The translations under genes and the position numbers were made by a program. Below, piece after piece: positions 28,020-37,549 of a stretch of DNA of 64,000 nucleotides (the stretch's first letter is position 1; each line of letters starts with the position of its first letter). Location: positions 128,001-192,000 of the forward strand of contig CAYSCM010000001.1 in assembly GCA_964429815.1 (NCBI GenBank), read 5' to 3'. The DNA comes from an uncultured Candidatus Saccharibacteria bacterium. GTDB lineage: Bacteria; Patescibacteriota; Minisyncoccia; Phycocordibacterales; CAYSCM01. The notes under the pieces are model-generated. The model did not search any database and had not been told where the DNA came from. It was given only the letters and a program-made list of their open reading frames with translations.

Positions 28020-28061
28020 TTTAACTGTTTGCTTCAGGCAATTGAGCTTCTATACTATTTT

Positions 28062-29492
28062 ATGAAAATGACCGAGGAACTTAAAACGATTTTTTATTAC
28101 AACGTACTTGAAGGAATAGAAAAACTGGTTCCGAAGTTTGTTTTTGATGAAAATAGAATTGCTCGTAATGACACTTCTTTCAAGGTCTACTTGCAAACAC
28201 TAAAACTCTATACGAGGATTCTAACTTCTCTGGACCAACAAACCGACTCTCTGTATCGAAAATTCGAGGAGAAGCGCCTGCGTAAGATATTCGAACTTGC
28301 GAACCAAACCACTTGGTGGCAACAATATTTTAGAAAGCACAACATTAATCCTTCTCTGCTCCGAAGCCTCGCCGATCTTGCTCTCATTCCACCTATTTCG
28401 CGATTTGATCTCGTAGATCTCCCCAAAAAAGATCTCCTCCTTTTTTCTGAAAACGACCCACACCTAGTATGGAGAAGTTCTGGCGGAAGCACTACCGGCA
28501 CTCCATTTCAATGGGCTCTCAATAAAAATCTACTTACATTTCATGTAATGGCTAGATTCGTCACTGCCTTTGAAGAGCACTCCCTATCTTTTGATACTTT
28601 TGCTACCAAAGGAGCTTATACGGAAATTAATTATCCACATGGATCCCATCGTTCCGAATTTAAATGGTTTTCGATTGGAGACTATTTTGCGTGGAGTGAC
28701 GAAAAAGAAAGCGGATCAAAATTGAATCATCTTGTCTCAATTCTTCAAAAGAATGAGCCTTTAATAGTCCGCATAATTCCAAGTGAACTTCATTGGCTTA
28801 CGGGAGAGTTTAAAGAAAAGAACCTCTCCATTCCTGTAGCTCTTTTTTCAGTTACAGGACAGCAGCTGCAACCCGGAGTTAGAAAACTTGCTGAAGATTA
28901 TTTTAAATGTCCCGTGCTCGTCCATTATGGAGCTCAGGAGATGGGGCCTCTATCGCTCGAATGTAAAGATGTGCATGGTTACTACCACATTTTTCGCGAG
29001 CGTGTAATTGTGGAAATTCTTGATACCGAGGGCAGATCTGTGCCCCCAGGTAGTGAGGGAAACCTCACAATAACAGTTCTCGACAACACCGCCATGCCTC
29101 TTATCCGTTACCAGCCCGGTGATTTGGCTGCGCTCCATACTGATATTTCCTGTTCTTGTCGTAATAGATCACCACTTTTGGAGATCCGAAGTCGATCTAC
29201 CGACGTATTTAAATTCGACAATGGAGAGATCCTGCCAGCAAGAAATGTTTTAAGAATTTTTGGTAGTGAACCACTTGTTTCTTTAGTAAAACGGTTTCAG
29301 GTACGTCAAGAACAGTTTAATTCCTGCGCCATTTTAATCCAACCTCGCGATTCGATATCCGAGAATGTTATATCTATACTTCGAAACAAGCTGCATGCGT
29401 TTTATGGAGGGAAACTCAAGGTCACGATTAAAGTAGTACACCATCTCCAACAAGATGGGAGGAAGTTTAAGGTGTTTGTGCCATTGAAATAG
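28062..29492 (+). CDS. Adenylate-forming enzyme, PaaK/CapK/F390-synthetase-like (ANL superfamily)
   Basis: SSGGSTTGTPF (PaaK-type P-loop SSGTTGxP), HYGAQEMGP, RYQPGDL hinge; low-GC island gene. A TTG at 28029 is possible as an alternative start. Confidence 0.7.
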   Translation: MKMTEELKTIFYYNVLEGIEKLVPKFVFDENRIARNDTSFKVYLQTLKLYTRILTSLDQQTDSLYRKFEEKRLRKIFELANQTTWWQQYFRKHNINPSLLRSLADLALIPPISRFDLVDLPKKDLLLFSENDPHLVWRSSGGSTTGTPFQWALNKNLLTFHVMARFVTAFEEHSLSFDTFATKGAYTEINYPHGSHRSEFKWFSIGDYFAWSDEKESGSKLNHLVSILQKNEPLIVRIIPSELHWLTGEFKEKNLSIPVALFSVTGQQLQPGVRKLAEDYFKCPVLVHYGAQEMGPLSLECKDVHGYYHIFRERVIVEILDTEGRSVPPGSEGNLTITVLDNTAMPLIRYQPGDLAALHTDISCSCRNRSPLLEIRSRSTDVFKFDNGEILPARNVLRIFGSEPLVSLVKRFQVRQEQFNSCAILIQPRDSISENVISILRNKLHAFYGGKLKVTIKVVHHLQQDGRKFKVFVPLK

Positions 29493-29494
29493 GA

Positions 29495-30259
29495 TTAGTT
29501 TGGAAATTCTGCGAGTTCGCACAGGCGATCATAGAGATTTTGAATTTTTTTTGGAACACTCGTGGATACAAATGTTCGTTTCCTTTCTGGTTTTATACTT
29601 TCGGTATTAATTTTTCCTCCAATTACGTTCGCCAACTTGTTGAGTCCGTCCGGAGAATAGAGCTGGTCTAAATGCATGAATAGCCATGAATCGCCCTTTT
29701 TAAAATGTTTTTCCAAGATGTGCTCATTAAGGCAAAACCAAGCTTCTAAACTCTTTTCATAGTTAATTTTAAACTCTTTCATAAGTTCAAACTCATCTAC
29801 AAACCTAAGAATACTCCGCGCCGTCTCTGCCGGATGTCTAAACATACAAACGAAGGTGGTTTTAGGAATAAAGGGTTTCCAAGCGCTTAGAGTGTAAGAA
29901 AATCGTGGATCTTTTAGGCAAAAGGGTGTTTTCTGAACCTGCCTTAAGATCTCTTGCTCCTGCGTTTTGGTGGCAATAATGGGTTTATCAAGGGGAATGC
30001 GTGCCAACCAGCGTTGCCATCGCTTAGGAATATGAAAATAGTTAGAATCATGTTCGTGTGGTCGTGCAGGCACTACATTCGACAGAATATCCTCATTAAT
30101 CGATCGAATGCTTATCGACTCAAAGGTTCCATCGGGATTTGAAACTCTCGGCGGAACAAACTCACCCCCAGAATAGTAGTGCGGGTTTCCCCTTATAATT
30201 GCTCCCGCCGCGGCACTTGTGCCACTCCTTCCACACCCAAGCACGATGACATTTCTCAT
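29495..30259 (-). CDS. Sulfotransferase-family-like protein (5'-PSB P-loop)
   Basis: N-terminal VIVLGCGRSGTSAAAGAI resembles the RSGTT PAPS-binding loop of the Sulfotransfer_3/RaxST-like family; convergent with the ligase gene. Confidence 0.6.
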   Translation of the reverse strand: MRNVIVLGCGRSGTSAAAGAIIRGNPHYYSGGEFVPPRVSNPDGTFESISIRSINEDILSNVVPARPHEHDSNYFHIPKRWQRWLARIPLDKPIIATKTQEQEILRQVQKTPFCLKDPRFSYTLSAWKPFIPKTTFVCMFRHPAETARSILRFVDEFELMKEFKINYEKSLEAWFCLNEHILEKHFKKGDSWLFMHLDQLYSPDGLNKLANVIGGKINTESIKPERKRTFVSTSVPKKIQNLYDRLCELAEFPN

Positions 30260-37216: not shown

Positions 37217-37261
37217 AACTAGAAAAAAACGCTTTGCTCTGGTAGGATTCGACCACTATCT

Positions 37262-37334
37262 GCCCTCGTCGTTCAATGGATAGGACGCAAGCTTGCGGAG
37301 CTTGTAATGTCAGTTCGATTCTGGCCGAGGGCGC
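37262..37334 (+). tRNA. tRNA with anticodon GCG (Arg by anticodon and A20/C35/G36 identity elements); an unusual isoacceptor
   Basis: GCCCTCG-TC-GTTC-AATGGATA-GGAC-G-CAAGC-TTGCGGA-GCTTG-TAAT-GTCAG-TTCGATT-CTGGC-CGAGGGC-G; clean cloverleaf; no CCA encoded. Confidence 0.65.
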
Positions 37335-37549
37335 ACATAGGGATTTTTGCGCCCGGCCAAAATCGAACGGGAAGGGGTCGGGGAACGGGAGTTCCCCGGG
37401 AGGAAAGCAGAGCGAAGCTCGTCGGAAACCATGGGTTTCTGAAGAGCCACCCTGCGGCGAGTGAGATAGCGAAGCGTCTGGCCGAGGGCGCCCATTTCCC
37501 AAGCGCCGCTTTTGTGGCATCATCCCGAGAGCTTAGTGAGGAGAGTTCG

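Follow-up and report, generated by a model that had tools for sequence, protein, structure and literature searches.

Results

A low-GC block of seven genes

The window analyzed here is the whole 64,000-nucleotide stretch (positions 128,001 to 192,000 of contig CAYSCM010000001.1, assembly GCA_964429815.1) of an uncultured Candidatus Saccharibacteria bacterium, and our subject is a low-GC block within it, whose seven genes center on a YcaO-domain enzyme and which we read as a cluster resembling those for peptides that ribosomes synthesize and that are modified after translation (RiPPs). Six of the genes lie on the minus strand. In the direction of transcription they begin with that of a 616-aa three-domain protein (P0123; 35327-37177; PF01871, E 1.3e-12), called the AMMECR1-toroid protein below. 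Next come the SagD-like YcaO enzyme of 510 aa (P0001; 33802-35334; PF02624, E 1.9e-47); a 103-aa putative precursor peptide (33440-33751) that consists of a membrane-helix leader, a TSA↓D junction (the arrow marking the boundary) and a core; a 376-aa membrane-anchored protein of the tetratricopeptide-repeat (TPR) type, c3 (32291-33421), with a basic N-terminus and a hydrophobic helix; a 579-aa FAD-linked oxidase of the vanillyl-alcohol oxidase/p-cresol methylhydroxylase (VAO/PCMH) type (30490-32229; PF01565 FAD_binding_4, E 4e-19); and a 254-aa sulfotransferase-like protein (29495-30259, the longest open reading frame (ORF) reaching 30286; PF13469 Sulfotransfer_3). The seventh gene, on the plus strand, encodes a 476-aa PaaK/CapK-like adenylate-forming enzyme (28062-29492), with partial NCBIfam matches to PaaK-type ligases and matches in the PDB.

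All seven ORFs are uninterrupted, and the cluster proteins covered by both Logan contigs are 100% identical in two sequencing runs (SRR12313482 and SRR12313479). Searches with hidden Markov models and against the PDB confirmed each of the seven domain calls made in the original prediction, an earlier reading of the same DNA. Its account of the layout, five co-directional genes separated by 2-nt gaps, has to be corrected: the minus strand carries six genes, the PaaK-like gene converges on them, and the spacings from the AMMECR1-toroid gene to the sulfotransferase gene are -8 (an overlap), 50, 18, 61 and 230 nt; the single 2-nt gap is where the sulfotransferase and PaaK-like genes converge, separating their stop codons. 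The same reading had remarked on the absence of E1-like or Ocin-ThiF, TfuA and SagB proteins, and here it was right; domain scans of the genes called at ~23.4-41 kb detected neither a ThiF/E1-like nor a TfuA domain, and tblastn with a relative's SagB returned no homologue from the 64-kb window (best E 1.8). A promoter-like site lies 5' of the AMMECR1-toroid gene (37187-37216, minus strand), with a 9/12 match and a TG before the -10 hexamer; this is weak evidence, and promoter-like sites are no more numerous in the region than in shuffles.

The block stands out by composition. GC content is 0.424 at 28020-37261 compared with 0.549 in the remainder of the window, 500-nt windows across 28000-37499 range from 0.39 to 0.47 against 0.56-0.61 in the adjoining flanks, and GC at third codon positions (GC3) is 0.32-0.41 in the seven block genes and 0.59-0.79 in flanking genes. 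Windowed GC and GC3 bear out the sharp drop that had been claimed for 28-37 kb; the drop is real and large, and only the figures attached to it, from 60% to 35-40%, were slightly exaggerated. At its low-coordinate edge the block begins with a terminator-like hairpin (27986-28013, plus strand; a 12-bp stem with six GC pairs, then a T-run) that ends the upstream 158-aa gene, and GC falls directly after it. The high-coordinate edge is a tRNA-Arg(GCG) at 37262-37334 on the plus strand. A hairpin search, ARAGORN and Rfam agree in this respect with the edges first proposed, a terminator and the tRNA at 37262-37334.

A YcaO family recurrent in Patescibacteria

The window YcaO has 133 significant relatives. 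The nearest besides itself is 48% identical, and the named ones come from Parcubacteria, Woesebacteria and Moranbacteria. A YcaO scan of one genome per species yielded 61 loci, in all of which ORFs were called and the proteins clustered, and the set comes to 63 loci with the window included; counts out of 63 below refer to it, and L-numbers designate individual loci. Of the 61, 45 are labeled as Candidate Phyla Radiation (CPR)/Patescibacteria, 10 are metagenome-assembled genomes (MAGs) labeled only 'bacterium', and six are MAGs of Myxococcota, Bdellovibrionales or Rickettsiales. Clustering recovered the YcaO in 60/63 loci, the window copy having been missed by the crude gene caller owing to the 8-nt overlap. 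The recurrent gene order among these relatives is AMMECR1-toroid, YcaO, small ORF, c3. A SagB-type dehydrogenase, scoring 126-137 bits with TIGR03605 (cut-off 78), is found in 48/63 loci; in L003 and L007 its gene is the immediate upstream neighbor of the AMMECR1-toroid gene. SagB is thus the family's usual companion, and its absence is a peculiarity of the window copy. Another frequent neighbor of the YcaO/SagB pair is c5, a fusion of a phosphoribosyltransferase-like domain to a pyrroloquinoline quinone-type beta-propeller (~550 aa; 26/63 loci, e.g. L054:7474-9126) that is absent from the window.

Clusters of this kind have been reported from bioinformatic analysis, and the window cluster belongs with them: Sharrar et al. 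2020 (mBio, PMC7298704) described CPR 'LAP' (linear azole-containing peptide) clusters of YcaO, nitroreductase, peptidase and an 84-aa precursor, counting 110 clusters in 93 genomes, with the nitroreductase adjacent in 89/110. The original prediction had called the system one of a type not recognized, and this match sets that claim aside. We found no experimental characterization of this kind of cluster in the searchable literature.

Several features of the enzyme bear on its chemistry. It aligns over its full length (5-377 of 377) with the SagD-family model TIGR03604 at E 5e-53 and also matches the model for McrA thioamidation (methanogen marker-1), at 84 bits (cut-off 365). Among solved structures, it is most similar to the cyanobactin heterocyclases TruD, MusD and LynD (E 4.5e-30 to 2e-27). 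The window protein keeps all 25 residues that are invariant in a 32-sequence alignment of the family; those invariant in the 32 relatives and the window alike include S-K-x-x-G-E-L-L-E-R and later acidic positions, which correspond to ATP/Mg-binding motifs. Its C-terminus reads ...TPHPFP, in which P506, H507, F509 and P510 are invariant and P508 is conserved in at least 90% of sequences; a C-terminal PxPxP is said, from work by Dunbar and colleagues in 2014, to be characteristic of azoline-forming YcaOs. Ten relatives (L003, L006, L007, L009, L013, L015, L016, L026, L032 and L040) have a single YcaO flanked by AMMECR1-toroid and SagB genes. Since SagB needs azolines and these ten loci offer only one YcaO to supply them, this YcaO clade would have to make azolines, and we infer that the window enzyme forms thiazolines or oxazolines at Cys or Ser. 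With SagB absent from the 64 kb, the rings of the window product would remain azolines and not become azoles, unless some other oxidase stood in for it.

A precursor-type small ORF with a hypervariable core

In about 30 loci, an ORF of 64-124 aa lies between the YcaO (or SagB) gene and a c3-type gene (c3, c8 or c31). These ORFs share an N-terminal part in which a short basic stretch is followed by a hydrophobic helix of ~20 residues, then a linker of 4-35 residues that ends in [A/V/T]-x-A before an Asp (VAHA↓D, AFA↓D, ALA↓D), and finally a tail of 19-72 residues that runs to the stop codon, consists mostly of Gly, Ser, Cys, Asp, Glu and Thr, and is unalignable between distant loci. Leader and junction are conserved across relatives, and the core is hypervariable in length and sequence, with Cys present in 40/43 distinct cores. 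It is this combination of a conserved leader and junction with a hypervariable Cys/Ser-rich core that leads us to read the small ORFs as RiPP precursors. A strict version of the pattern (a membrane helix, [AVSTG]xA[DE], and a Gly/Ser/Cys/Thr/Asp/Glu-rich tail of 10-75 aa to the stop) retrieved 36 ORFs from 931 kb of related loci and 0 from the same sequences reversed, and across the whole window it retrieved one ORF only, that at 33440-33751. The junction A-x-A↓D fits the -3/-1 rule of signal peptidase I.

In the window, the junction T-S-A↓D precedes a 51-aa core (DTPYSQSTYYGQSGYYGQSSYYSESGYGFAEGGGGGGSCEASVQGGGLECC) with eight Tyr, three Cys and a Gly run, ending ...SCEASVQGGGLECC. This core belongs to a Tyr-rich subtype common to L003 and L007, in which alignment with the relatives shows a conserved x-C-E-S/A motif and a C-terminal Cys. 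By position and architecture, the 103-aa ORF, whose gene call was confirmed in L002, would encode the substrate of the cluster's enzymes. The idea of a RiPP-like modification system centered on YcaO, put forward before any relatives had been considered, is supported by a precursor-type ORF that, in the window as in ~35 relatives, separates the YcaO gene from that of the membrane TPR protein. A match of the small ORF to the YxzE 'putative bacteriocin' family (19.9 bits against a cut-off of 40) was treated as compositional and rejected.

An AMMECR1-toroid protein beside YcaO

YcaO enzymes are known to depend on partner proteins for finding and processing the peptides they act on, and to our knowledge all characterized YcaO partners are E1-like, Ocin-ThiF-like or TfuA proteins. 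The AMMECR1-toroid protein likely plays the part of the partner here, as judged from gene overlap, conserved adjacency and fusions. In the window, its gene and the start of the YcaO gene have 8 nt in common, and the family occurs in 19/63 loci, always immediately upstream of YcaO. Metagenome loci were anchored on the AMMECR1-toroid gene by a scan with a 15-sequence alignment and counted if they had at least 1.2 kb downstream; YcaO is present in 29 of the 44, in 25 of them directly downstream on the same strand. Four representatives of separate clusters at 50% identity (P0125, P0188, P0204 and P0246; 1043-1131 aa), from distinct lineages, are single polypeptides in which the domain order follows the gene order, AMMECR1-toroid and then YcaO. 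Such Rosetta-stone fusions argue for a physical complex of the two proteins. The family is a modest one, with 195 representatives at E <= 1e-30 among 1.84 billion.

Five metagenome loci (L099, L101, L102, L105 and L107) have the AMMECR1-toroid gene, then a gap of a few hundred bases to ~1.8 kb, then c3, with no YcaO between; their contigs are short, and the YcaO could be elsewhere. The association of the AMMECR1-toroid protein may be with the peptide system as a whole, not with YcaO alone.

An AlphaFold2 model of the protein, built with 68 homologues, is confident (pLDDT 93.8, pTM 0.92) and divides it into an N-terminal alpha/beta domain (residues 16-105) with no detectable relatives, an AMMECR1 domain and an (alpha/alpha)6 toroid. 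The AMMECR1 domain is recognized by PF01871 (48 bits against a cut-off of 25), by profile match to PDB 1zq7 (E 9e-16) and by structural match. In the AMMECR1 motif RGChG, the Cys was proposed to be catalytic (Balaji and Aravind 2007; PMC2034487). The window protein reads R172-G173-S174 at this point, with Ser in at least 90% of the 68 family sequences, and it keeps D196-x-R198-F199, at the place of the family's DxRa motif. Sequence-level matches of the toroid are weak (PF13243, 21.2 bits against a gathering score of 26.1), and its invariant and near-invariant columns in the 15- and 68-sequence alignments contain no DxDD and no conserved Cys. They do contain an invariant polar set (K538, D598 and H602) and near-invariant R534, E541, Q565, Y566 and R587, along with family-specific conserved motifs (YTRGTGK, MQY, GGFRHD and WID..GH). 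The invariant polar residues suggest that the toroid may hold a functional pocket rather than serve as a mere scaffold. The original prediction had considered this neighbor of YcaO unusual, and so it appears: no paper that connects AMMECR1 with YcaO, with RiPPs or with biosynthetic clusters came to light, much subscription literature lying outside the search.

Membrane and surface-protein neighbors

c3 occurs in 30/63 loci, always just downstream of the small ORF, and the window protein spans 376-378 aa. When 20 homologues are combined in a profile, positions 45-108 match TPR proteins, and the protein has a LapB-like layout of a helix followed by TPR. By the positive-inside rule, the bulk of c3 and the core of the precursor face outward, and c3 might conceivably handle the exported peptide, whether in processing, retention or immunity. 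Two further genes recur near the cluster, side by side in most loci. In the window both lie on the minus strand at normal GC, outside the low-GC block: c2 (26623-27345), a membrane TPR protein found in 35/63 loci, and c4 (25876-26586), a membrane or secreted protein with Ig-like repeats and Cys pairs found in 26/63. The c2/c4 pair may have a functional connection with the system, or its recurrence may be due to conserved CPR synteny alone.

Other relatives have neighborhoods of their own. In three SagB-less loci (L012, L021 and L023), three genes for membrane-anchored rhodaneses follow one another in tandem ~1-4 kb downstream of YcaO, and a membrane thioredoxin/AhpC-TSA-like gene adjoins the cluster; these genes hint at extracytoplasmic sulfur or thiol chemistry on Cys-rich peptides. 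In L067 the cluster (5749-12890) sits between rpsG and fusA, in the str operon; it consists of a fused AMMECR1-toroid-YcaO gene, genes for a second YcaO and for SagB, a 99-aa ORF and a c3-like gene.

Candidate tailoring enzymes

The remaining three genes of the block may encode enzymes that tailor the Tyr-rich core; these are hypotheses, and they make up the weakest step of our model. The oxidase is more specific in kind than a plain FAD_binding_4 protein. It matches p-cresol methylhydroxylase (1dii/1wve) at E 3e-46 over the FAD and cap domains (stretches 6-331 and 419-540) and vanillyl-alcohol and eugenol oxidases at E 1e-34 to 1e-28. VAO/PCMH enzymes oxidize para-alkylphenols, and the Tyr side chain is a para-alkylphenol. 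Oxidase homologues occur in 6/63 genome loci and in the metagenome locus L105, L071 being the L003 locus again. Tyr is found in the core of six of the seven oxidase loci as compared with 10/36 others (Fisher p = 0.007; Mann-Whitney p = 0.0008; both ignoring shared ancestry), and all three cores with at least eight Tyr have the oxidase.

The sulfotransferase-like protein scores 26.3 bits with Sulfotransfer_3, just under the gathering score of 27, and has a GRSGTS loop, of the type that binds the 5'-phosphosulfate of 3'-phosphoadenosine 5'-phosphosulfate (PAPS), and KDPRFS; it had no match in a PDB sequence search. The Sulfotransfer_3 Pfam family includes tyrosylprotein sulfotransferases, and Tyr O-sulfation is a reasonable guess at the activity of this protein. 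The PaaK-like enzyme matches phenylacetate-CoA ligases in the PDB at E 3.5e-16, with Pfam AMP-binding below its cut-off, and has homologues in 11/63 related loci, often as tandem copies. PaaK-type enzymes adenylate aryl-acetic acids.

Probable replacement of a resident cluster

The locus of the closest relative, L003 (on a 402-kb contig), has the same surroundings. On one side the two have in common tRNA-Lys, a 316-323-aa protein, Mur ligase, RuvA, S20, a 200-aa protein and tRNA-Arg(GCG), and on the other the c2/c4 pair and tRNA-Ser; the three tRNA genes are syntenic. The same tRNA-Arg(GCG), divergent from the cluster, stands at the same place in L003 and L007. Flanking proteins of the window and L003 are 55-72% identical (Mur ligase 72%, c2 67%, c4 68.5%), and the Mur ligase is 72% identical between window and L003 compared with 57% to L007, which by flanks makes the window and L003 sisters. 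The cluster proteins of the window and L003, by comparison, are only 31-48% identical, and they are equidistant among the window, L003 and L007 (YcaO 47.5/47.6/48.1%; AMMECR1-toroid 35.6/32.1/35.8%). From this contrast in identity between flanks and cluster, together with the unameliorated GC3, we gather that a cluster from a lower-GC donor would have replaced a resident homologue. On this comparison the block is probably a cassette that took the place of a homologous cluster in the interval bounded by tRNA-Arg(GCG) and the c2/c4 pair. SagB would have been either lost or never present in the incoming cluster.

No integrase is among the island genes and no convincing att repeats flank the block; we therefore rejected a classical integrase-mediated tRNA island, as the block in addition lies 5' of the tRNA. 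The horizontal acquisition that had been proposed is upheld by the foreign composition, though not in the form of a fresh insertion beside a tRNA, as a homologous cluster occupies the same locus in relatives. Exchange of the cluster appears to extend beyond the window. Its GC is below that of the flanks in 38/47 relatives (median -2.8 points), with drops of 7-14.5 points in L040, L042 and L028, of which that in L040 (-14.5) is as large as the window's. This suggests frequent exchange of the cluster among CPR genomes. No YcaO relative was found on viral contigs that would point to a phage vector.

Other features of the region

The 3' end of the tRNA-Arg (37320-37338) recurs as a 19-nt copy (18/19) 157 nt downstream at 37477-37495, on the far side of the tRNA from the island. 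This copy resembles a scar left by some past integration or excision at the tRNA, with no relation to the low-GC block. The 158-aa gene and the island together are flanked by a 16-nt A-rich direct repeat (15/16; 27409-27424 and 37213-37228); it is one of 29 short repeat families in the region and probably due to chance. A second, milder GC dip at 42000-46000 (0.45-0.51) was considered as a second island and rejected, as its genes, for PolA (45820-48309), a NUDIX hydrolase and a holA-like protein, are of the housekeeping kind; it also contains tRNA-Lys. In the normal-GC flank, a GlcD-type FAD-linked oxidase (FAD_binding_4 and FAD-oxidase_C) is encoded at 23488-25206 on the plus strand; its longest ORF overlaps tRNA-Ser (23456-23539), so the real start lies further downstream.

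Discussion

We propose to see in the low-GC block a horizontally exchanged, accessory copy of the YcaO clusters, RiPP-like in character, of the Patescibacteria (CPR) type, a reading that we would give a probability of roughly 60%. In the pathway that we envisage, the basic stretch and hydrophobic helix of the precursor would tether or target the 103-aa peptide to the membrane, leaving its 51-residue core (ending SCEAS...LECC) to be modified. The SagD-like YcaO would use ATP to activate backbone amides next to Cys or Ser and so form thiazolines or oxazolines. It would act in complex with the AMMECR1-toroid protein, which would replace an E1-like or Ocin-ThiF partner in engaging the substrate, or would carry out a coupled second reaction. 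Lacking SagB, the rings would stay as azolines or be oxidized by another enzyme. The PCMH/VAO-type flavoprotein might oxidize Tyr side chains, the sulfotransferase might add sulfate and the PaaK-like enzyme might adenylate a carboxylate, this being the least secure part of the scheme. The modified peptide would then be exported by its own leader, cut at A-x-A↓D and handled outside the cell by the membrane TPR protein.

A more far-reaching proposal, which we put forward tentatively and at somewhat less than even odds, is that AMMECR1-(alpha/alpha)6-toroid proteins are a previously unrecognized class of dedicated YcaO partners, the fourth beside E1-like, Ocin-ThiF-like and TfuA proteins, going as neighbors or as fusions with one clade of YcaO enzymes that is found mainly in CPR bacteria, and that, acting jointly with YcaO, they modify peptides with a membrane leader, which are exported and cut at A-x-A↓D.

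A number of observations weigh against parts of this model. The YcaO scores 180.3 bits with TIGR03604, under the curated cut-off of 219.25. Searches of the island proteins, of the unassigned first 140 residues of YcaO and the first 120 of the AMMECR1-toroid protein, and of the recurrent neighbor families found no recognizable RiPP recognition element (RRE) and no E1-like, Ocin-ThiF-like or TfuA domain. YcaO is missing from the available contig in about a third of those AMMECR1-toroid loci whose sequence is long enough. Within the AMMECR1 domain, Ser replaces the proposed catalytic Cys, and the toroid is without terpene-cyclase or prenyltransferase motifs; the role of the protein could be purely structural, or could lie in unrelated chemistry. 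In the precursor, the linker of 4-35 residues between helix and A-x-A↓D exceeds the canonical c-region of a signal peptide, and this excess length makes cleavage by signal peptidase I itself doubtful. As regards tailoring, the sulfotransferase has no homologue in any related locus and is under the Pfam threshold. The statistic that joins Tyr to the oxidase ignores the relatedness of the loci, L105 has the oxidase without core Tyr, and L063 has a Tyr-rich core with no oxidase nearby. The oxidase alignment keeps the Tyr of GYG and the Arg, with the Tyr preceding the Arg replaced by Gln; these aligned Tyr/Tyr/Arg positions are presumably the phenolate-binding triad of VAO/PCMH enzymes.

The nature of the YcaO product is the first point at which a different account could be given. 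An AMMECR1-toroid-partnered YcaO might make a thioamide, an amidine or macroamidine, or some other product, with the AMMECR1 domain or toroid possibly supplying a nucleophile or a second step. Such chemistry would fit the absence of SagB from the window, the enzyme's score below the SagD cut-off and its 84 bits with the McrA-thioamidation model, as well as the arrangement in L067, where a second YcaO is paired with SagB beside the AMMECR1-toroid-YcaO fusion in what could be a division of labor as in two-YcaO pathways. The rhodanese and thioredoxin-like genes of L012, L021 and L023 could likewise be handlers of sulfur or thiols, but the rhodaneses have N-terminal membrane helices and are probably extracytoplasmic, away from the ATP-dependent enzyme. 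Azolines are favored instead by the ten loci in which one YcaO adjoins both AMMECR1-toroid and SagB, by the invariant PxPxP-type C-terminus and by closest solved relatives that are heterocyclases, and no TfuA was found in the island proteins or recurrent neighbors; a product other than an azoline seems to us unlikely.

The fate of the peptide is the second. Instead of releasing a product, the system could mature a membrane-anchored envelope peptide that serves in adhesion, metal binding or a surface structure, with the helix as a permanent anchor and A-x-A-D left uncut. The family is widespread in genomes of less than 1 Mb, where accessory antibiotic pathways are rare, and its recurrent neighbors (c2, the TPR protein c3, the Ig-like c4, rhodanese and thioredoxin-like proteins) are membrane or secreted proteins. 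The helix fits the positive-inside rule, the linker is longer than a standard signal peptide would allow, and the cores are acidic and Cys-rich, like metal-binding peptides. These cores are nonetheless hypervariable, as are RiPP products under diversifying selection, the strict small residues at -3 and -1 before Asp fit a protease site, and the lower cluster GC in 38/47 relatives together with horizontal exchange marks the system as accessory rather than core. We accordingly regard a permanently anchored peptide as improbable.

Even if the family works as we suggest, the window copy might be a decaying or inactive remnant that lost SagB in transfer and yields no product. SagB is present in 48/63 loci and absent here, the composition is foreign and unameliorated, and the sulfotransferase gene, for which relatives have no counterpart, comes after a gap of 230 nt. 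Against decay, the seven ORFs are intact and every invariant family residue is kept, the same cluster sequence was recovered from two sequencing runs, and other SagB-less loci exist (L018, L021, L022 and L028), so that a remnant is in our view quite improbable. That the genes are an incidental collection on foreign DNA with no shared pathway, as the restriction of the sulfotransferase and the exact gene set to the window might suggest, has next to no chance of being right, since it is contradicted for the four core genes by an order kept across dozens of loci and by the fusions, and could apply only to the sulfotransferase and PaaK-like genes.

AMMECR1 is conserved from archaea to humans and in human lies in the AMME contiguous-deletion region, and we know of no activity demonstrated for it since structures were solved in 2005. 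If AMMECR1-toroid proteins are a dedicated class of YcaO partners, the AMMECR1 domain, in its Cys-to-Ser variant, would gain its first concrete biochemical context. Once its peptide substrate and enzyme partner were defined, the function of the domain could be tested directly, giving a direct experimental handle on both the diversity of YcaO partners and the function of AMMECR1. The system is among very few biosynthetic-type clusters that recur in CPR bacteria, with their minimal genomes and host-attached lifestyles, and under the same condition it would define a RiPP class characteristic of ultra-small episymbiotic bacteria. The export-type leader and the surface-protein neighbors suggest a role at the cell surface or in host interaction. 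The locus is also a clean example of cassette-like replacement, and the peptide repertoire of these genomes may diversify in this way.

Comparison with known systems

Among the individual enzymes, the likenesses are partial. The oxidase resembles the VAO/PCMH 4-phenol oxidases over its full length, with one phenolate-binding Tyr apparently Gln, and no peptide-Tyr substrate is known to us for these enzymes. As in sulfated RiPPs of the RaxX/RaxST type, an enzyme of the Sulfotransfer_3 type adjoins a Tyr-rich peptide, here below threshold and without a close characterized relative. The AMMECR1 domain differs from the rest of its family in being fused to a toroid and linked to YcaO, and in having Ser for the Cys of RGChG. 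It likewise falls short of the AmmeMemoRadiSam system, with TIGR04335 at 55 bits against a cut-off of 99 and no Memo-like dioxygenase or radical SAM neighbor in the island or among recurrent neighbors. The toroid has its fold in common with single-domain class II terpene cyclases and other (alpha/alpha)6 barrels (8paj, MstE and AGE-family epimerases), at identities of 9-16%. Unlike class II terpene cyclases, protein prenyltransferases and LanC, it has no DxDD and no Cys for a Zn site.

Among YcaO systems, TfuA-YcaO thioamidation differs in its TfuA partner, which was not found here in the island proteins or recurrent neighbors. The classical thiazole/oxazole-modified microcins (TOMM) and LAPs (McbBCD, SagBCD, Balh and plantazolicin) are alike in their SagD-type YcaO with a PxPxP-type C-terminus and, as regards the relatives, in SagB, and the Gly/Ser/Cys-rich core of microcin B17 resembles the cores of the window family. 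They differ in that an AMMECR1-toroid partner stands here in place of an E1-like C protein or an Ocin-ThiF/RRE protein, and in that the leader here has a membrane helix. In the cyanobactin heterocyclases TruD, PatD, LynD and MusD, a partner domain and YcaO form one polypeptide, as they do in our fusion variants, with the difference that the N-terminal partner is E1-like with an RRE in the former and AMMECR1 plus an (alpha/alpha)6 toroid in the latter. The CPR LAP clusters of Sharrar et al. 2020, from MAGs of Parcubacteria, Microgenomates and Peregrinibacteria, have the YcaO and an adjacent Ser/Cys-rich precursor of ~80-100 aa in common with the window cluster. Most of those clusters have the nitroreductase (SagB) next to YcaO, in contrast to the window copy, which has none, and the text of that report speaks of YcaO, nitroreductase and peptidase only, without an AMMECR1-toroid protein, a membrane-helix leader with A-x-A↓D, c3 or tailoring genes. 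What the present analysis adds to that cluster type is the AMMECR1-toroid protein as candidate partner, with its adjacency, coupling, fusions and Cys-to-Ser exchange; the membrane-helix leader with its A-x-A↓D junction; and a putative Tyr-directed tailoring set.

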